Shown here piece by piece: positions 1,993-29,748 of a stretch of DNA of 64,000 bases; positions within the stretch are counted from its first letter, which is position 1; the number at the start of each line of letters is the position of its first letter. The position numbers were made by a program, and so were the translations under genes. The DNA is from Patescibacteria group bacterium UBA7435 (GTDB lineage Bacteria; Patescibacteriota; Minisyncoccia; Phycocordibacterales; UBA918): contig DLQJ01000016.1 of assembly GCA_002477545.1 (NCBI GenBank), positions 24,528 through 88,527 on the forward strand, read 5' to 3'. The notes beneath the pieces were generated by a model that saw nothing but the letters and a program-made list of their open reading frames with translations, was not told the origin of the DNA and did no database searches.

Positions 1993-2322
1993 TTACGGAG
2001 CAACTACTGCACCACAACTCACACTAGGAATACCAATGCCAAACGTACCTGCTGCAATACTCAAAAGTGCCATAGCCGAAAGCATTACCAACATTCCAAT
2101 AACACCATAGAGAAGATGCTGTCTGCCAACTTCGCGAGCTGACTCATTATTTGCATTTTTTACATACTCAAACGCACCATACAGAAAGTACAGAAACGCT
2201 AGTGCCATCAATAGTGTAATGAGAGGAAAAAGGATGGCTTCATTAATTCTATTTACAAAACATTGTGCAGCTATTTGTGCATCAGTTGCCTGTGCATGCG
2301 CAGTGTGTATGAGACTAAACAT
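1993..2322 (-). CDS. Pilin-like small membrane protein, paralog 1 of 4 (CPR T4SS-pilin/TrbC-like family)
   Basis: Two hydrophobic helices flank the motif FLYGAFEYVKNANNESAREVGRQ shared with the ORFs at 4894, 5353 and 5603; start chosen at the internal Met (MFSL...). Confidence 0.45.
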   Translation of the reverse strand: MFSLIHTAHAQATDAQIAAQCFVNRINEAILFPLITLLMALAFLYFLYGAFEYVKNANNESAREVGRQHLLYGVIGMLVMLSAMALLSIAAGTFGIGIPSVSCGAVVAP

Positions 2323-2460
2323 AGCTCTATTATACACACCCTTTACACCCACAACGGGTGTTTTCCGCGGAAAACACCCGTTGTGGACTTCTATCAGACA
2401 CTCAAATATCATAATATGGCTATTAATAGACCTTTACCCCTAAAATAACAACCTTTTTCA

Positions 2461-2489
2461 TTGACTTTTAGCTTATTTTGTGCTATTAT
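2461..2489 (+). promoter_or_regulatory. Putative sigma70 promoter TTGACT-17-TATTAT for the 2625 operon
   Basis: Near-consensus -35 and -10 hexamers with 17-nt spacer; AAGGAG RBS 8 nt before the ATG at 2625. Confidence 0.4.
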
Positions 2490-2624
2490 AGTAAGTGGAG
2501 TAGCGTAATGCATCTTCCCCTTTTGGTTTGCATGTGCAGACAAAAACGGAGAGGCGCATCCGCGCTATATATAAATTGTGATTAGTTAACACTGCTCACA
2601 CAGAACCTTGAAAAGGAGCATACT

Positions 2625-4100
2625 ATGTTCTCTAGAACCAAAAAGGCCTTCGCGGCCACCAAGAAACGTTTTACCTCTTTGCGTAAACGTTTTAAAAGAA
2701 CCCCTCGTACTGAGGAAACTTATTACAGGAGGGATCTTACGCGGGTTTGTTTATTTTTGCTTTTTGTCTTCATTACATACACAAAGGTACCAAACCCATT
2801 CTCTGAAATGATCTTCGGTGGTGTCGCTCTGTTGGTATTGCTACCGTTCATTCTTCCGCTGATTCCCGGCTTTGTAAATGCACTTGCAAACAAGCCTAAT
2901 GTTAAGCGGATCAAAACTAATGAGTCCATTGCTGAGCTAAACACGCAAGATGAAGACGAAATTGAACCAATCGTGACAGTTCGAGTTAATACCACAGATG
3001 ACTACAAACCTCACACTCTTGCATTTTTTACCTTCCTTGAACCAGGACGAGCAAAAATAATTGAGCGTGGCGATCGATTCATCCGCATACTTATGCGTTA
3101 TGACGATCATTCGTTTCGTGGAGAGACATCGCTTCGAACAAAAACGAGTACTGGCAAAGATCTTGCAAAAGGGCCTATTGCGCGCAATGAAGCTGCCTTC
3201 TGGGATGTTATAAAAACACCTAAAGGTGAACTTGATACACATCCTATATCAACTTCGTTACGCAGAGGTCATTTCGATCTTGTATGGCTTTGGTCTCGCT
3301 ACGTGTACCGGATCACTGGTGCTGTTTTTACCGGCATACCGCCGTTTCAAACAGTACGAACTTACAAGCTTTCTCGTCTTCTGAAAGTTCCTGCCGAAAA
3401 AGGTGGGTACGACTTTGAAGTAGAGACTGACTACAGTGATCATTTTCGGGCTTCATATTTCCAGTTCTTTGTTCGGATTGATGAGGCAGAAACCCAAGAC
3501 CAAGCGCCTTTGGATATTGACTTTGCCGCGACACTTCGTGTGCAAAATCCATACCAAACAGCGTATGAAGCAGCCGATTGGTCTACCCAATTTACAACTG
3601 CTTTGACTAATGTGATTCTCAATCACATTCGAGGTCTCACCCGTAGTGAGGTTACTGCTGAAGATACTAGTGATGCTAGTTATCATGCCAAAAGGCTTTC
3701 GTCAGCTGGCATGAGAATCAATAAGGGCGATAAAACAAGTCACATCATTGCAATTCCAAAATTTGGACTTAAAATGGATAAACTTGAAACGCTTAGTATC
3801 AAAGTAGCAGACAAGGAGCTTAAGGAAGCTCTTGCCGGGATCGCTAAATCAGAAGCTCGTGCAACTGCACGAGTAAATGAAGGTGACGCAGAGGCTGCAG
3901 CACAAGGAGCACTCATGAAGAAAGCAGCAACTCACGGTCGCTTTGGCGAGCTTGTAGTTACTACCGAACGTGATGTCCGTACAGCAAAAGCTGCGGGCGT
4001 AAACGGTGGTAGCGTAATTGTAAACACAGGAGGACAGCAAGGAGGGGTAGATTCCAAAACTGCATTTCTCCGGGAAAGTCTTGAAAGGATAAACCCATGA
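2625..4100 (+). CDS. Membrane protein with SPFH/band-7 (flotillin-like) domain (tentative)
   Basis: 491 aa with N-terminal TM segment; LEPGRAKIIERGDRFIRIL resembles the start of the SPFH core; C-terminal Ala/Glu-rich coiled region (EARATARVNEGDAEAAAQGA) typical of flotillin-like proteins; strong RBS. Confidence 0.4.
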   Translation: MFSRTKKAFAATKKRFTSLRKRFKRTPRTEETYYRRDLTRVCLFLLFVFITYTKVPNPFSEMIFGGVALLVLLPFILPLIPGFVNALANKPNVKRIKTNESIAELNTQDEDEIEPIVTVRVNTTDDYKPHTLAFFTFLEPGRAKIIERGDRFIRILMRYDDHSFRGETSLRTKTSTGKDLAKGPIARNEAAFWDVIKTPKGELDTHPISTSLRRGHFDLVWLWSRYVYRITGAVFTGIPPFQTVRTYKLSRLLKVPAEKGGYDFEVETDYSDHFRASYFQFFVRIDEAETQDQAPLDIDFAATLRVQNPYQTAYEAADWSTQFTTALTNVILNHIRGLTRSEVTAEDTSDASYHAKRLSSAGMRINKGDKTSHIIAIPKFGLKMDKLETLSIKVADKELKEALAGIAKSEARATARVNEGDAEAAAQGALMKKAATHGRFGELVVTTERDVRTAKAAGVNGGSVIVNTGGQQGGVDSKTAFLRESLERINP

Positions 4101-4843
4101 CAGGAGTAATAGTTGGATTTGTAGTCCTGGGAATTATAGCGTTGATTGTTATACTTTTCGGGACTCTCGTCTTTACCTCCGCCCTTGCGGGCGGAGGCAT
4201 TACTGCAAGATTACCCAACATGGGTAACTTCACAAAGCCTTTTCTCTTACTTCTTGGAATTGGATTAGCTTTGTATTTTGGGCCTACGGTTTTTTCAAGC
4301 CTTAGCTCTAAAAATTGGATGCCTGATATCTCACTCTGGTTAATTATATCTCTGCTGGTAACAGCGGGACTTATCGCAGTTGGATTTCTTGGTCTCTACA
4401 GAGAACCAGAGATCAGCAATGCTGCAATGTGGTTTGTCAGGATTTTGATTGCCATCTTTACACTTATTTCCATCAGCTGGTTCCTTTGGGGATCAGAAGC
4501 TGTGGAAAATCGGTACGAAGATATACAAGATTGGAAATGGGAAAACTCATGGTTTTCTTCAAACCCAACGCCAGGAACCACTGAAGTCACTCAAGTGGTC
4601 TACATGGGTCGTGCAAACGGTTCTGTATATACTTTAAGTGATGAATACTGGACCATGTTTGACTGGCCTGACAACGGCTACTGCGTTCATGTTCCAGGTA
4701 ATACTGCAGGAGTTCTTGACCGTGCTAACGACGGTCGAGATGAATACTCCCTACTTAGTCGTGTTGCTGGGAAGAAAGTACGCGTGTATACGCTTGCTCC
4801 TGGTGAATCGATTGGGGACTATACATGTCCCAAGCTAACATGA
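4097..4843 (+). CDS. Polytopic membrane protein with C-terminal soluble domain (possible NfeD-like partner of the SPFH protein)
   Basis: 248 aa with 4-5 N-terminal TM helices; ATGA stop/start overlap with the upstream ORF indicates translational coupling. Confidence 0.4.
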   Translation: MTGVIVGFVVLGIIALIVILFGTLVFTSALAGGGITARLPNMGNFTKPFLLLLGIGLALYFGPTVFSSLSSKNWMPDISLWLIISLLVTAGLIAVGFLGLYREPEISNAAMWFVRILIAIFTLISISWFLWGSEAVENRYEDIQDWKWENSWFSSNPTPGTTEVTQVVYMGRANGSVYTLSDEYWTMFDWPDNGYCVHVPGNTAGVLDRANDGRDEYSLLSRVAGKKVRVYTLAPGESIGDYTCPKLT

Positions 4844-4847
4844 AAAA

Positions 4848-4879
4848 AGGCCCCGCAAAATGCGGGGCCTTTCTTATTT
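4848..4879. terminator. Bidirectional rho-independent terminator
   Basis: aggccccgcaaaatgcggggcct hairpin flanked by A-run and T-run, between convergent genes. Confidence 0.6.
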
Positions 4880-4893
4880 CAAAAATACTGAAA

Positions 4894-5262
4894 TTATCGG
4901 TTGTTTGAGGGTACATTTGGAATGTTTTGGATATCTTGATCATCTGAGAATCCAAGTCCTCCAGCAATCAAGTTTACAATACCAAATACTGAAACCATGA
5001 TAACGAATCCTACAATCGCGTATACCATCAGTTTCTTTCCTTCTTCCCGTGAGTCTTCGTCTCCACCTCCAAGGATGAAGTACTTGAAGATACCGTAAAT
5101 GAATACAAGTAGTGCAAAAGCAAATACCAACGGGATCAATGTTCCGTTAATAAATGAGGAGATATCATCAACGAAATCGTTGATTCCACCAAACTGTGCA
5201 GCTGCAACACCTGGAAGTACCATAAGTGCCAGTGCCAGCGTATAGATACTAATTTTTTTCAT
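4894..5262 (-). CDS. Pilin-like small membrane protein, paralog 2
   Basis: Signal peptide MKKISIYTLALALMVLPGVAAA, then helix, IYGIFKYFILGGGDEDSREEGKK motif, then helix. Confidence 0.5.
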   Translation of the reverse strand: MKKISIYTLALALMVLPGVAAAQFGGINDFVDDISSFINGTLIPLVFAFALLVFIYGIFKYFILGGGDEDSREEGKKLMVYAIVGFVIMVSVFGIVNLIAGGLGFSDDQDIQNIPNVPSNNR

Positions 5263-5352
5263 ACTCTGCATTATCATAAATTTATAAGTTGATGTGTCTA
5301 TTATACAAGATTTTTACGTATATTAAATGTATATACTCCATTGTGTGCATAT

Positions 5353-5601
5353 CTAGATCAACCCAAAGGAATCTTGCAACAACTGGAGTATACCCCAGAT
5401 ACCAAACATAAACACGAATGCCACTACGGCAGCGACCGCAATCTTCTTCCCTTCTTCAACACTGTTTTCATCCCCCCCATTGATAATCCATGCTTTTATA
5501 ATCCCCCACGCGAAAACAATGAAAGTAAGTGCGAATACAACTGGCACTAACAGTGATATTAATCCGGTAAATACACCAACGAGATCTGCAAAATTATTCA
5601 T
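5353..5601 (-). CDS. Pilin-like small membrane protein, paralog 3
   Basis: 82 aa; helix, then AWGIIKAWIINGGDENSVEEGKK motif, then helix; same architecture as the neighbours. Confidence 0.5.
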   Translation of the reverse strand: MNNFADLVGVFTGLISLLVPVVFALTFIVFAWGIIKAWIINGGDENSVEEGKKIAVAAVVAFVFMFGIWGILQLLQDSFGLI

Positions 5602-5602
5602 A

Positions 5603-6025
5603 TTACGAAGTTATTTGTCCTACAGTACCAGTAATCACTGTAAGTAGCACGTTTGCACCTAAGATCAACAATCCACCAATAAGTGCGTAGAGTAGCGCAT
5701 TATGTGCTCTTTTTATCGTCTCAGCGTTACCTCGTGCGGTTACATACAAGAACCCCGCGTAGATAATAAAGAACACCACAAACGGTATTGCAAAGATTAT
5801 GAGAATATCAATAATCGCTTGGAAGAACGCAGGGATGGTGCTGATACTGGAATCCAGAGGATTAAGCAGCTGACCACTTCCTGGTGTTATGCTAGGCCCT
5901 GAACCTATGCCATCAGTTCCGCTAGGACCGGACCCTGTACCACCACCAGTTCCACTAGAACCAGATCCTAGTTTCCCAAATGTAATTAATGGAAAAAGTA
6001 ACAAGACTATCAAAAAATACTTCAT
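5603..6025 (-). CDS. Pilin-like small membrane protein, paralog 4, with Gly/Ser/Thr-rich N-terminal extension
   Basis: Signal peptide, low-complexity GSGSSGTGGGTGSGPSGTDG linker, then the conserved helix-YAGFLYVTARGNAETIKR-helix module. Confidence 0.5.
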   Translation of the reverse strand: MKYFLIVLLLFPLITFGKLGSGSSGTGGGTGSGPSGTDGIGSGPSITPGSGQLLNPLDSSISTIPAFFQAIIDILIIFAIPFVVFFIIYAGFLYVTARGNAETIKRAHNALLYALIGGLLILGANVLLTVITGTVGQITS

Positions 6026-6026
6026 A

Positions 6027-7331
6027 CTAATATTCCAAAATTAAACGATTAACGGCATCACTCACTGCTTGATTGATAAGAGCACGATTTGAAACAACGT
6101 CCTCTACCATTTGCATCAAGATGCTATCTGAGGCACTTGGATCTGGATCAAGCCAGCCTCGTGCAATAAGTGCACTCTGGAACATCGTTGCTCTAAATGC
6201 ACCGTTGTCACCCTTTCCAATCACGTCACGACGCACTGGCGCCATATTCAAACCAATAGTCAGGTCACTCACAAAGCGCGCAGAAGAAATGGTATTCATT
6301 GCAGTAAATGCACCCTGCGGATTTGCTGAAGCGCGCGGGATTGCAAATCCATAGAAATCACCGTATGTTCGAAGTGCTGTTGCGGAAGTACCCTGCGGAA
6401 CTGTGGTTATATCAAAGTTAAGATTAGGATTCTTCTCATCAATACCCACTGCTTCAGAACCAAGTCCAAAGTAGAGTGCTAAATCACCTGAAATAAAGGC
6501 ATTTTTATCTTCCGGCATTGCACGGTTCCAAGTATACAATGTACTGTTTACATCACTAAAGCCCGTAAAAAAACTCAGCGCACTCTCAAGTGGTGCAGCT
6601 GTAGGCCCTTCAGACTTATTGATACTAACAACATATCCTCGTTCGTTTTCAGTCACCATAGAACTTCCTGTTTGGATCGCTAAAAGTGCGAGAATATCTT
6701 TCGCATGGTTCACGTTTCGGAATTCACCAAAAGAAAGAGCACTTTGTGAAACATTACGACTACTGTCGGTTACGGTAATGCGCGGCACTACTTGTGAGGT
6801 AACTTCAGCCCAATTACGAGGCGCTTGTGCGAAGCCATGTGAAGAGAACGTATCTCTATTCCAATACATAAGCAACGGATCAACTGCAAATGGAATTGCG
6901 TAGATACCATCTCGCAGTGCAAAAATATCAGCGCCGTCTACGTATGTATTACGGTATGTATTTAACGGCACGGATTCATACGGAACAGGAAGCAGTTTCG
7001 CTCGGTGTTTTACTAAGCTATCACTCTTCAGCACAATCATGTCAGGTGAGCGACCTTCTGCAATAGCGTTGATAAGTTCATCATCAAAGTCACGTGCATC
7101 TATCTCGCGATACTGCACGACATTAAACGCCTTATCTTCTTGCGAAATATTGCGAAACGCTGTTTCAAACACAAGAGCTGGCAACGTCCCCCACACAACA
7201 ACGCTGTCACCATAGACAACATCTTCTTCTGAAGGCTTCCCTTGGAAGTTAGCTAACAAAACCAAAGCAAAAAACGCCATGAAACCAAAACCGGCAAGGA
7301 GAATTATTTGGAATGGGCGTAAATTCATCAT
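6027..7331 (-). CDS. Membrane-anchored extracellular solute-binding-protein-like protein (SBP family 1-like)
   Basis: 434 aa with N-terminal TM anchor; VVVWGT...SPDMIVL pattern resembles ABC substrate-binding proteins; directly abuts the pilin-like genes on the same strand. Confidence 0.45.
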   Translation of the reverse strand: MMNLRPFQIILLAGFGFMAFFALVLLANFQGKPSEEDVVYGDSVVVWGTLPALVFETAFRNISQEDKAFNVVQYREIDARDFDDELINAIAEGRSPDMIVLKSDSLVKHRAKLLPVPYESVPLNTYRNTYVDGADIFALRDGIYAIPFAVDPLLMYWNRDTFSSHGFAQAPRNWAEVTSQVVPRITVTDSSRNVSQSALSFGEFRNVNHAKDILALLAIQTGSSMVTENERGYVVSINKSEGPTAAPLESALSFFTGFSDVNSTLYTWNRAMPEDKNAFISGDLALYFGLGSEAVGIDEKNPNLNFDITTVPQGTSATALRTYGDFYGFAIPRASANPQGAFTAMNTISSARFVSDLTIGLNMAPVRRDVIGKGDNGAFRATMFQSALIARGWLDPDPSASDSILMQMVEDVVSNRALINQAVSDAVNRLILEY

Positions 7332-7338
7332 GTGTATA

Positions 7339-7905
7339 TTATATCTTACGTAGTGCTAATCCGTAGTGATGATCCCCCGCATCAAAAGATCGATCAAAGG
7401 TAAAACCTTGTTGTTCAGCAAGTGCCCGAACAGTTTCCTCAGTAACTACAGCATCAGGCTGTGGACCTAAGCCACCAAATGATTCTGACCAGTCAATAAT
7501 AAATAACTTCCCGCCACTGCGTAGTGTCCGAGCAAGCTCTTGCAAGGCAACCGCCTGTTCTTCAAACTGAAAGAAAGTGTTAACCACAATTGCAGTATCA
7601 AGTACGCCATCAGGAACCTTAGTACCTCCAATGTCTTCAACGTCGCCCCATAGTGGCCGCACTTGCGTCAGACCTTTGGTTCGTGCAATTTCGCCAAGTT
7701 TTTCTACTAAGTCTTTTTGAATTTCAGACACATATACCACACCTTCTTTCCCAACAAGCTGTGCGAGCACTTCCATAAAGTACCCACTGCCTGCACCAAA
7801 ATCAGCAACAGTATCTCCCTCTCGAATATGGAAATGTGTAGCAACCACCGCAGGCTCAACAAACCGCCCCTGCAAATTAGGTGTCACCGATGAAGTATCT
7901 AACAT
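7339..7905 (-). CDS. Class I SAM-dependent methyltransferase
   Basis: Motif I DFGAGSGYF and Rossmann-fold pattern. Confidence 0.7.
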   Translation of the reverse strand: MLDTSSVTPNLQGRFVEPAVVATHFHIREGDTVADFGAGSGYFMEVLAQLVGKEGVVYVSEIQKDLVEKLGEIARTKGLTQVRPLWGDVEDIGGTKVPDGVLDTAIVVNTFFQFEEQAVALQELARTLRSGGKLFIIDWSESFGGLGPQPDAVVTEETVRALAEQQGFTFDRSFDAGDHHYGLALRKI

Positions 7906-8063: not shown

Positions 8064-8094
8064 AAAAGGGATGACCTTGGTCATCCCTTTTTTC
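8064..8094. terminator. Bidirectional terminator hairpin
   Basis: aaaagggatgaccttggtcatcccttttttc. Confidence 0.5.
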
Positions 8095-8128: not shown

Positions 8129-8255
8129 AAAAATCTCTAGAAATTGCGTGAGATGTGCGGAAGACAAGAAAAAAGACCCGAGCGGGACACGTGTCCAGCG
8201 AGGGTCTTTTTATCGCAGTCTGACAACGCAGATTGCGTGATTTCTAGAGATTTTT
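8129..8255. repeat. MITE-like intergenic repeat, copy A: 16-bp terminal inverted repeats enclosing a terminator-like hairpin; abuts the gyrA stop codon
   Basis: TIRs aaaaatctctagaaat / atttctagagattttt; internal gaagacaagaaaaaaga motif plus ggacacgtgtcc hairpin and T-run; ~75% identical to the copy at 57601-57730. Confidence 0.55.
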
Positions 8256-27911: not shown

Positions 27912-27955
27912 AATAAAAAACGGCACCTACATGGGTGCCGTTTTTATTTTATTCT
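27908..27955. terminator. Bidirectional terminator (extended AT-flanked palindrome)
   Basis: aataaaataaaaaacggcacctacatgggtgccgtttttattttatt. Confidence 0.6.
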
Positions 27956-29748
27956 TGCAAAAACCCTCCTGCTTGATGCTCCCACAATCGCTGATATGTT
28001 CCACCTGACTGAGTCAACTCGTCATGTGAACCATCCTCTACAATCTTCCCTGTTTCCAATACTAGAATTCTGTCCATTTTACGAAGTGTTGAAAGTCGGT
28101 GTGCTACGGCAATCACGGTCTTTCCTTCCATAAGAATTTCTAGTGCTTTCTGGATCTCAACCTCACTCTCACTATCAAGTGCAGAAGTAGCTTCATCAAG
28201 TACTAAGATCGGTGCATCTTTAAGCATCGCGCGCGCGATAGCTACTCGTTGCTTCTGTCCACCAGAAAGCTTAATGCCTCGTTCCCCTACTAACGTATCG
28301 TATCCAGTCTCTAGCTGCATGATGAAATCGTGAGCCTGTGCTTTTTGTGCAACTGCGATAATTTCCTCATCAGTAGCATCAGGTTTTCCATATGCGATAT
28401 TTTCACGAATCGTTCGGTGGAACAATAATGGCTCTTGTGGAACTACTGCAATATTTTCACGTAATGAATCTTGGGTTACTTGTGAAATATTCTGTCCATC
28501 AATCAAAATGTCTCCACTATCAATATCGTGTTGTCGCAGTAAGAGGGAAACGAACGTCGTCTTCCCTGCTCCTGAAGGACCTACCAAACCAATTCGCTGT
28601 CCTGGTTTAATGCTAAGCTCGAAGTTATCAAAAACGGCATTGGTTCCATACTCAAACTGAACCTTATTCCAAGAAATTGCACCCTTTGCAACCACTAAAT
28701 CTGACGCATTTGAAACATCCTTAATTTCCCGATCGACTAATATTTCACGTAAGCCTTCTTCCACATTCCCATATTCTCGAATAAATCGATTCATCGCATG
28801 ACCAATAGTCACAAACATATACGCAATTCGTCCGAGTAAACCAAGGACTAACACGAGTGTGCCTGCAGTCATTGAGCCTTGTGCAAGAAGTGCGTACAGC
28901 AATACCAGTACAACTCCAATCATTATGATAGCGAAGCAGGTGTTAGCGAGCATTATTAATTCACCAAACATTGATTGCTTCATATCTTTATGTGCTCGGT
29001 CAGTGAAGACAGATCCAAGGCGATGTAACTCGAAGCGACGTTGCGAGAATTGTCGAACTGCTGAAATGTTAGTGATGGTGTCCACCCCTTCTCCTCGAGA
29101 TTTCGAAGCGGCGGTAGCATACGAAACCACCAACGGTCGACGTTTTTTAACCGCAATAATGTTGAACACAAGCACTCCCAAGAAAATACTCAGCAAGATA
29201 AATCCGATACGGAAATCAATCGTGAAGAATAACAACAAGGTTACTGTTAAACCAATAGATTCTGAGAAAAAGGTCCACAACAACTGGAACATTAATCCTG
29301 CACTGCTATCAACTGCATTTGAAACCTTATTTGAAAGTGCACCTGCGAAACGATTACTGAAGTAATTATGACTATGAGTAGTTAAATAATCATAAAGTTT
29401 AGAGTATCCGTCTTTATGAAACTTAATGATCCAACGTATTGCAGTAAACCCACTTAATCGATACAAAAGACCGTTACCAGCTGAAACCAGCAAGAACAAT
29501 CCTCCCCATAGATATAGAACTTCTTTTTGCTCCGCCAGTGACTCTGCAAGTGTAAAATTATCAACAAGTTTTGCTGAAACATAAAAGATCATTATGTTTA
29601 ATGTTTCTGCGGCAATAACAAGAGAGAACGATACCAGACCAAGAAATTTATACTTACTCCCCAAATACCACAAAAACCGTAGCGGTGTATTAGGAATACT
29701 TCCCGTATATGGCGCTTTTATAGCGCTCTGTTGTTTTGCAGTATTCAT
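27949..29748 (-). CDS. ABC transporter, fused permease/ATP-binding protein (MsbA-like exporter)
   Basis: Six-TM N-terminal domain; Walker A GPSGAGKTT, signature LSGGQKQRVAIARA, Walker B ILVLDEATSALD. Confidence 0.85.
   Translation of the reverse strand: MNTAKQQSAIKAPYTGSIPNTPLRFLWYLGSKYKFLGLVSFSLVIAAETLNIMIFYVSAKLVDNFTLAESLAEQKEVLYLWGGLFLLVSAGNGLLYRLSGFTAIRWIIKFHKDGYSKLYDYLTTHSHNYFSNRFAGALSNKVSNAVDSSAGLMFQLLWTFFSESIGLTVTLLLFFTIDFRIGFILLSIFLGVLVFNIIAVKKRRPLVVSYATAASKSRGEGVDTITNISAVRQFSQRRFELHRLGSVFTDRAHKDMKQSMFGELIMLANTCFAIIMIGVVLVLLYALLAQGSMTAGTLVLVLGLLGRIAYMFVTIGHAMNRFIREYGNVEEGLREILVDREIKDVSNASDLVVAKGAISWNKVQFEYGTNAVFDNFELSIKPGQRIGLVGPSGAGKTTFVSLLLRQHDIDSGDILIDGQNISQVTQDSLRENIAVVPQEPLLFHRTIRENIAYGKPDATDEEIIAVAQKAQAHDFIMQLETGYDTLVGERGIKLSGGQKQRVAIARAMLKDAPILVLDEATSALDSESEVEIQKALEILMEGKTVIAVAHRLSTLRKMDRILVLETGKIVEDGSHDELTQSGGTYQRLWEHQAGGFLQE

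Follow-up and report, generated by a model that had tools for sequence, protein, structure and literature searches.

Patescibacteria, which live attached to the cells of their hosts, represent a large part of bacterial diversity. In the one genetically tractable species, Southlakia epibionticum, an array of pilin genes is essential and lies inside an essential type IV secretion system (T4SS) cluster (PMC10633639; PMC12857230). Tandem arrays of VirB2-like genes are already on record from these bacteria: a recent catalogue lists 441 arrays of 2–11 genes in 383 Patescibacteria assemblies and, in a survey centred on components near virB4, places pilins near that gene in 1135 of 1948 assemblies (Quinonero-Coronel et al. 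2025, PMC12102498). Among the signal-peptide genes of unknown function in cultured Paceibacteria, T4SS pilins are in the top five by expression (PMC10936435). Here we compare with these arrays four pilin-like genes (A to D) from Patescibacteria group bacterium UBA7435, which lie with a methyltransferase gene and a gene for a solute-binding protein (SBP)-like protein in a 64-kb stretch of contig DLQJ01000016.1 (hereafter the window, meaning the whole stretch analysed). The window is a chromosomal housekeeping region with a G+C content of ~43%, carrying gyrA, ftsA/ftsZ, lepA, murJ, glmS, CTP synthase and tRNA genes. It corresponds to part of JGI contig Ga0115549_1000032 (109.6 kb), on which its first position falls at ~26,132.

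A preliminary description of positions 1993–7331 had proposed a family of T4SS-pilin/TrbC-VirB2-like proteins interleaved with an SPFH/NfeD-like gene pair and an SBP-like lipoprotein. Its core, a tandem PF18895 VirB2-like array, holds and is not new. Four aspects appear undescribed in the literature searched: the class-wide operon coupling to a membrane-anchored, carbohydrate-type SBP-like protein and a methyltransferase, the fixed succession of the four orthologous types from D to A, the location away from virB4 throughout, and the presence of an allele-swapping SPFH neighbour; a search combining Patescibacteria, solute-binding protein, pilin and SPFH returned no paper. In the comparisons below, the pilin-like genes of Paceibacteria, the largest class, come as four fixed types bound in one operon to a carbohydrate-type binding protein and apart from the ATPase genes. 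The SBP-like gene followed by 4–6 pilin genes near gyrA thereby offers a compact marker for comparative and expression studies.

The pilin-like genes and their operon

The four pilin-like open reading frames (ORFs) lie on the minus strand at 1993, 4894, 5353 and 5603, as first described. Listed in the direction of transcription, with lengths in amino acids (aa), the genes are:

7339–7905, minus strand: class I S-adenosylmethionine-dependent methyltransferase, 188 aa; first gene of the operon; matches Methyltransf_31/11/25
6027–7331, minus strand: transmembrane (TM)-anchored protein with an SBP-like ectodomain of the carbohydrate-SBP type, 434 aa
5603–6025, minus strand: pilin-like D, 140 aa; putative signal peptide, Gly/Ser/Thr/Pro linker, two-helix core
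5353–5601, minus strand: pilin-like C, 82 aa; no evident signal peptide, two-helix core, NGGDENSVEEGKK turn
4894–5277, minus strand: pilin-like B, 127 aa; M6 at 5262 probably the true start; two-helix core with GGGDEDSREEGKK turn, between a putative signal peptide (cleavage at AAA↓Q) and a C-terminal tail
1993–2322, minus strand: pilin-like A, 109 aa; no evident signal peptide, two-helix core, short C-terminal tail; in this lineage the SPFH pair stands between it and the array

The ORF of A spans 1993–2412, the ATG at 2322 being most likely its true start, in agreement with the JGI gene call. From the methyltransferase gene (7905–7339) through the SBP-like gene (7331–6027) to D, C and B, the gaps are 7, 1, 1 and 75 nt. 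Relatives of this arrangement were sought by scanning a three-sequence alignment of the SBP-like protein across a one-genome-per-species collection; tblastn confirmed 208 places, and 80 loci (33–85% identity) were retained, most of them labelled Paceibacter(i)ota or Kaiser-, Taylor-, Zambryski-, Wolfe- or Nomurabacteria. Pilin types were assigned with type-specific hidden Markov models (HMMs). Wherever the sequence continues for at least 1.5 kb beyond the SBP-like gene, as it does in 65 loci, pilin-like ORFs, usually 4–6 of them, lie without exception directly 3' of it on the same strand (median gap 5 nt). Of 49 loci, 41 have a D-like gene at the head of the array and 45 an A-like gene at its end. 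Upstream, the methyltransferase occupies position –1 of the SBP-like gene in 69 of the 80 loci, with a median gap of 7 nt in 67 loci (30 nt or less in 53), and gyrA ends a median of 236 nt before it. On this gene order and spacing, the series methyltransferase, SBP-like, D, C, B and, where it adjoins, A is a tight operon conserved class-wide in Paceibacteria.

All four small proteins match PF18895 (T4SS_pilin), with 39.4 bits for B, 26.6 for C, 26.4 for D and 21.0 for A (E 6e-10 to 3.6e-4, the last for A). The family cut-off of 26.6 bits is reached by B and C, the latter exactly; D and A fall below it and are counted as members because they are clear paralogues or orthologues of scoring members. 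The best NCBIfam match of A, B and D is NF045849 (Mbov_0395 pilin-like conjugal transfer), at scores (37.6 bits for B, 26.2 for A) that are all below its cut-off of 40. A search with B returned 270 homologues, one of them named 'pilin' by NCBI, and all 120 among the matches listed carry PF18895. The shared PF18895 match together with orthologues across relatives places the similarity far beyond chance, and we regard membership of the family, as judged from these profiles, as solid.

The common architecture proposed at first is borne out in its helices and in part only in its motifs. Hydropathy gives each protein two long hydrophobic helices with a short polar turn between them, and an AlphaFold2 (AF2) model of B built with 43 homologues predicts a signal-peptide helix followed by helices 32–69 and 74–106, joined at GGGD, with a predicted local distance difference test (pLDDT) score of 86–94 in the core. 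Judged by eye, B (...VAAA↓QF) and D (...TFG↓K) appear to have signal peptides, and A and C to have none. A and B carry the aromatic motif F.YG..(E/K)Y, of which C and D have degenerate forms; the acidic turn GGDE(D/N)S.EEGKK is limited to B and C, its equivalents being NANNESAREVGRQ in A and ARGNAETIKRAHN in D. The paralogue described as having a Gly/Ser/Thr linker is indeed D, where this Gly/Ser/Thr/Pro stretch covers approximately residues 18–57.

Each protein has its own counterparts in the relatives: identity between orthologues is 33–69% (A 53–67%, C 44–56%, D 47–66%), as against 18–46% between paralogues, among A to D and their relatives. In the closest relative of the locus (L009, JBLHQB010000022.1), the pilins are 79–96% identical to those of the window and B is 96% identical. 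Each type also has hallmarks that recur in the relatives. Type A shows no signal peptide and ends in a tail of variable length (15 to ~190 aa); type B combines a putative signal peptide with an IPxVP tail; type C is ~82 aa long and shows no signal peptide; and in type D a putative signal peptide and a variable N-terminal linker precede the core 'IIYAGFLYVTARG'. On these alignments A, B, C and D are four fixed orthologous types and do not vary freely. Some species have, directly behind the SBP-like gene, a fusion of 468–538 aa in which an N-terminal ectodomain precedes a C-terminal T4SS_pilin domain (L060, 11354–12970; L082, 11308–12714); the extension of the 538-aa L060 fusion matches fn3 and purple-acid-phosphatase-N-like models. 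Such ectodomain–pilin fusions argue that the N-terminus of the protein at this position is displayed extracellularly, and the C-terminal extensions of type A are a further sign of surface exposure.

Compared with the catalogued Patescibacteria arrays, including the six-pilin array of S. epibionticum ML1, the array in the window belongs to the same Pfam family, is likewise chromosomal in a monoderm epibiont lineage, and likewise consists of divergent paralogues (~25% identity on average in the catalogue). An array has been defined as two or more pilin genes of low identity, in tandem or split by one non-pilin gene; D, C and B form such a tandem, and A is split off by the two-gene SPFH unit. The differences lie in the setting and in the composition. 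The array is not part of a virB4 cluster but forms the distal part of an operon headed by the methyltransferase and SBP-like genes, and its members are four positionally conserved types, two of which appear to lack a signal peptide. The published arrays were reported to be commonest in Microgenomatia and Saccharimonadia; the present locus, near gyrA, extends across Paceibacteria.

The SBP-like protein matches SBP_bac_8 (47.5 bits) and SBP_bac_1 (43.8 bits) over a full-length fold, and a profile search of Protein Data Bank (PDB) sequences leads to oligosaccharide, maltose and trehalose binding proteins (4r9f, 2.8e-13; 1eu8, 6.7e-7). While the SBP fold and the membrane anchor claimed for it are upheld, the designation as a lipoprotein is not: the 434-aa protein contains no cysteine anywhere, and thus none for the lipobox that anchors lipoproteins in monoderms, and it is therefore TM-anchored through a single N-terminal hydrophobic helix (residues 6–31), which is preceded across the family by a conserved (P)FQ motif. 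It thus has the full SBP_bac_1/8 fold of the family 1 carbohydrate ABC SBPs (MalE/TMBP/MBP1-like), whose members are its nearest solved relatives, but differs from them in being neither lipoprotein nor periplasmic, in being always co-operonic with pilin-like genes, and in having no cognate permease or ATPase nearby. No ABC permease or ATPase partner lies in the window or recurs in the 80 loci, the sole ABC protein of the window being an exporter-type fusion at 27949–29748. A functional analogy, and no more, may be drawn with Agrobacterium ChvE, an SBP through which a T4SS regulon is informed of host sugars; ChvE comes from another SBP cluster and acts by way of VirA, a protein absent in the setting of the window. 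The methyltransferase, which ends 7 nt ahead of the SBP-like start, matches just generic models in NCBIfam, and it may modify a pilin or the SBP-like protein.

The SPFH protein and its partner

Between B and A, on the opposite strand, lie two further genes and a hairpin:

2625–4100, plus strand: SPFH/Band-7 membrane protein, 491 aa; convergent unit outside the pilin operon; Band_7 26.7 bits
4097–4843, plus strand: polytopic partner, 248 aa; four TM helices and a C-terminal beta domain of ~90 aa
4843–4875, unstranded: bidirectional terminator hairpin between the convergent partner gene and B; 15-nt arms, 93% complementary, GC-rich, flanked by A/T runs

The preliminary description of an SPFH protein coupled to a polytopic, NfeD-like partner is accurate as to the SPFH protein and the coupling. 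The Band_7 match (PF01145, cut-off 23.6 bits) covers residues 238–423, behind a hydrophobic segment at 58–88 that would serve as an N-terminal membrane anchor, and the ATG of the partner gene overlaps the SPFH stop (ATGA, 4097–4100). A Shine-Dalgarno sequence, AAGGAG, stands 8 nt ahead of the SPFH ATG at 2625 (2610–2627), for which reason we favour the 491-aa start over the 430-aa public gene call; the partner gene has AAAGGA. NfeD identity of the partner, by contrast, we reject, since neither an HMM match (PF01957) nor a fold match was found. The protein has no Pfam or NCBIfam match; AF2 predicts a seven-stranded beta domain (167–233, pLDDT >90), for which Foldseek against the PDB gave weak Ig-like and carbohydrate-binding-module-like matches, nothing significant and no NfeD/OB fold. 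Its relatives number just 12 among 1.84 billion representatives, with cysteines C196 and C244 invariant. In common with known SPFH/NfeD operons (E. coli QmcA-YbbJ, B. subtilis NfeD2-FloT), the window pair couples an SPFH protein translationally to a polytopic protein ending in a small beta-rich domain, but it differs from them in the lack of any NfeD signal or solved-NfeD match, in the two invariant cysteines, in the small 12-member family and in an SPFH allele that is swapped between close relatives. 'NfeD-like' thus describes the partner as an architectural analogy only.

The pair recurs, although its SPFH member is hard to follow by sequence. A word-based search with the SPFH protein gave six homologues, and no close relatives were found in the genome contigs collection. 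The relatives recovered through this protein (L001–L005) carry the same four pilin-like genes. SPFH-like genes occupy the same convergent position in ~19 related loci (13 by an iterated SPFH HMM and six by Band_7 at E<1e-3), which led us to reject a lineage-specific insertion. In another scan 11 of 40 loci were positive, and roughly half of the loci examined have no detectable SPFH gene. More generally, a similar convergent pair, of a polytopic protein and a protein of 330–490 aa with 1–3 TM helices, stands behind the array in the majority of loci whose flank is long enough. Its place varies: the pair separates B from A in the window, L009, L011 and L012 and follows A elsewhere, with A directly after B in L001, L005, L015 and L020.

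Its sequence varies as well. Between L009 and the window, GyrA is 94%, the SBP-like protein 85%, pilin B 96% and the partner 51% identical, whereas the protein at the SPFH position is unalignable; the alleles at this position in L009 (8233–9420), L011 (12248–13396) and L012 (13231–14307) are unalignable or weakly Band_7-like, and the window allele is similar to alleles found in less closely related genomes (L013, L020). This pattern suggests recombinational allele exchange at the SPFH spot. No match in PADLOC was obtained for the two proteins, and a reading as a defence system was rejected on that ground. The proposal that the pair and the pilin genes are interleaved in a single module is not supported by these comparisons: the pair is convergent and separately terminated, and its position and allele shift independently of the pilins. 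We read it, from gene order and alignments, as a separate, recurrent, fast-evolving or swapped neighbour, membership of the pilin operon not being demonstrable.

Kinship to conjugative pilins and possible roles

This raises the question of how closely A to D are related to the pilins of conjugation systems. The family assignment made at first divides here: PF18895 is matched by all four proteins, whereas the classical TrbC/VirB2 family (PF04956; Agrobacterium VirB2, MPF-T TrbC) is reached only below its threshold and by B alone (20.9 bits, E 4.2e-4, cut-off 27.9), with no match for A, C or D. Window proteins and TrbC/VirB2 proteins are alike in small size, in two hydrophobic helices with a short charged loop, in the predicted AxA↓Q cleavage site (type B) and in an alignable I..FI.G. 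Eight genuine plasmid VirB2/TrbC genes served for comparison, all of them directly upstream of VirB3 and seven of the eight directly after a VirB1/lytic-transglycosylase gene; no VirB1, VirB3 or VirB4 gene adjoins the genes in the window, whose products also have a longer acidic–basic loop and belong to a monoderm organism. Profile–profile alignment (hhalign) of the B type with these eight gave E 0.0061, a probability of 6% and 26 columns, limited to the AxA↓Q site and the I..FI.G start of helix 1; the four window paralogues gave E 0.023, a probability of 2% and 61 columns spanning both helices. The likeness is weak and at most suggestive of direct homology to classical VirB2. Mbov_0395 (NF045849) of the Mycoplasma integrative and conjugative elements (ICEs) offers a second point of comparison, being a pilin-like two-TM protein of a monoderm MPF-FATA-type conjugation system, the class thought to be the source of the Patescibacteria T4SS. 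The Mbov_0395 proteins, however, are single genes within ICEs, with neither an array nor an SBP-like partner, and the window scores stay below the cut-off throughout.

We propose that this Paceibacteria operon combines a methyltransferase and a membrane-anchored, carbohydrate-type SBP-like protein with VirB2-like subunits D, C, B and A that feed a host-contact structure built by a T4SS, a reading to which we give somewhat better than even chances. The pilin-like proteins would enter the cytoplasmic membrane in the form of helical hairpins, types B and D once their putative signal peptides are cleaved and types A and C by means of their own helices. From this pool an MPF-FATA-type T4SS, encoded elsewhere in the genome, would extract subunits and assemble them at the surface into a filament or conduit that serves host-cell contact. 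Type B is the probable major subunit, since none of the four scores higher against the family model or is better conserved, and a strong –10 box of its own precedes it; D, with its variable N-terminal ectodomain or linker, and A, with its variable C-terminal tail, are probably specialized minor, adaptor or tip subunits, and C would be a minimal one. The SBP-like protein probably recognizes a host-surface or host-derived glycan at the host interface. The cluster may plausibly act in cell contact; the T4SS-pilus function of A to D we infer from the published context of the family.

Several observations weigh against this proposal. The expected machinery is not at hand: no VirB4, VirD4 or VirB6 was found in the 64-kb window (for VirB4 and VirD4, as the preliminary description had noted), in 7 kb of left flank or in 10 kb of right flank, and across the 80 loci no large T4SS ATPase or channel gene recurs at a distance of up to 10 kb from the operon. 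Proteins with a Walker-A motif that were checked near these loci are UvrA and an ABC-type ATPase, and other large neighbours checked include a LeuRS fusion and an fn3 surface protein. Kinship to classical pilins is weak in both profile–profile alignments and in the sub-threshold TrbC/VirB2 score; a profile search of PDB sequences with B retrieved no conjugative pilin, Foldseek of its AF2 model against the PDB returned non-specific helical matches (E>1) and no conjugative pilin, and A and C appear to lack the signal peptide typical of classical VirB2/TrbC pilins. We found no report of an observed T4SS pilus in Patescibacteria in the literature searched, and a 2025 review speaks only of the 'potential to elaborate conjugative pili' (PMC12857230). 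Finally, the gyrA, trhO and infB flanks are likewise syntenic across the loci, and because these housekeeping genes keep their places too, gene order outside the tightly packed core is weak evidence for function.

A separate type IV pilus cluster was observed to the right of the window, with an A24 prepilin peptidase and 3–4 N_methyl pilin-like genes (L089, 1–2480, ~6.4–8.8 kb past its end, equivalent to window positions 70.4–72.8 kb). Its presence on contigs of the same gene order indicates that the genome has type IV pilus genes close by, and no T4SS genes were seen there.

The separation from virB4, which holds in all 80 loci, would be expected if the PF18895 hairpins worked without a T4SS, as anchors for ectodomains in a stand-alone surface-display or envelope complex that forms, with the glycan-binding SBP-like protein, a fixed heteromeric patch for host adhesion. 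The apparently fixed stoichiometry (four conserved types in a fixed order), the ectodomain–pilin fusions, the family-wide (P)FQ and TM segment of the SBP-like protein and the weak similarity to genuine VirB2 all fit such a complex. Against it stand the essential T4SS clusters in which PF18895 proteins sit in other classes of Patescibacteria, the VirB2-like AxA↓Q processing site and I..FI.G helix 1 start of B, and the habit of dispersed T4SS sets of encoding small components away from virB4; on balance we regard this explanation as possible but doubtful. Were it true that the pilin-like proteins need no T4SS, the annotation 'T4SS pilin' of a very abundant family would need revision. The full-length carbohydrate-SBP fold and the missing ABC importer would also suit a role in nutrition, in which the SBP-like protein passes host oligosaccharides to a channel of 8–14 pilin-like TM helices, an importer without an ABC permease. 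SBP-like, D and C are translationally coupled, and Patescibacteria rely on imported metabolites (PMC10633639). Such an importer nevertheless seems highly improbable to us, as it has no energy-coupling component, the hairpins have no polar or charged intramembrane residues that would hint at a translocation path, the context of PF18895 in other classes is the T4SS, and orphan SBPs commonly dock to distant permeases or serve as sensors or adhesins.

The SPFH pair bears on a further alternative, namely that the whole of 1993–7331 is after all one module, in which SPFH protein and partner form a membrane microdomain or quality-control cage that organizes the pooled pilins, stores them or turns them over. 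In Firmicutes, flotillins are known to scaffold secretion machines, and the recurrence of a convergent pair behind the array, with SPFH detected in the loci counted above, speaks for it. The pair is, however, on the opposite strand with its own Shine-Dalgarno sites, sharing with the operon a terminator; its place relative to pilin A varies by lineage; its SPFH member cannot be aligned in the closest relative, where the pilins are 79–96% identical, and in the window resembles the alleles of more distant genomes; trhO, rbfA and infB are equally syntenic neighbours; and, beyond the missing PADLOC match, there is no further functional hint. We hold this arrangement to be conceivable, with the chances rather against it. 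It is unlikely, in our estimate, though worth stating, that the operon specifies a self-contained Paceibacteria apparatus, in which the SBP-like protein and four non-interchangeable subunits make a host-contact or glycan-capture filament or patch of fixed composition, possibly independent of VirB4, with the SPFH pair as organizer or conflict hot spot. One subunit may then present N-terminal ectodomains and another C-terminal tails. For other classes the proposal has been a 'variable pilin array for host range or immune evasion', with which a fixed composition of this kind contrasts. The T4SS-built host-contact structure remains the reading that we prefer.

Promoters and surrounding region

Promoter-like sequences lie close to several starts. 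The box TATAAT stands 6 nt ahead of the ATG of A (2334–2320), TATACT 6 nt ahead of that of the methyltransferase (7917–7903), and GATAAT 6–7 nt ahead of the M6 start of B (5275–5260), in each case with no Shine-Dalgarno sequence. These –10 boxes, all near-consensus, suggest leaderless mRNAs for A, the methyltransferase and B. In addition, B has its own TGTATAAT box at 5307–5300. The promoter of A is overlain by one more element:

2349–2386, unstranded: perfect palindrome of 38 nt; two 19-nt arms, 100% complementary, no spacer; over the –35 zone of the A promoter

The palindrome is unique in the window and, among the fetched loci, occurs only in L007 and L008, which hold the window's own region; it is absent from L009, whose –10 and start sequence at A is identical. 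Possible readings are an operator specific to the strain or the scar of an insertion.

Between gyrA and the methyltransferase gene are two terminator-like hairpins without Rfam matches, one after gyrA (8064–8091) and a second (AAAAGGGATGACC..GGTCATCCCTTTT; 8170–8212) downstream of a promoter-like site at 8130–8102, ~160 nt ahead of the methyltransferase start. An Rfam scan of the whole window gave tRNAs only, with no known regulatory RNA in the operon leader. At the other end of the region, tRNA-Leu(tag), tRNA-Cys(gca) and tRNA-Leu(taa) are clustered at 215–853, where spurious ORFs overlap them, and adjoin trhO (915–1937), which encodes a tRNA U34 hydroxylase.

The public labels of some relatives are at odds with their gene content. 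L009 and L011 (JBLIMJ010000013.1), the two closest public relatives of the locus, come from metagenome-assembled genomes labelled Patiriisocius sp. (Flavobacteriaceae) and Acidimicrobiales, respectively, and their contigs are probably mis-binned; many further relatives are labelled 'Candidatus Saccharibacteria', yet their gene order fits that of the Paceibacteria loci.

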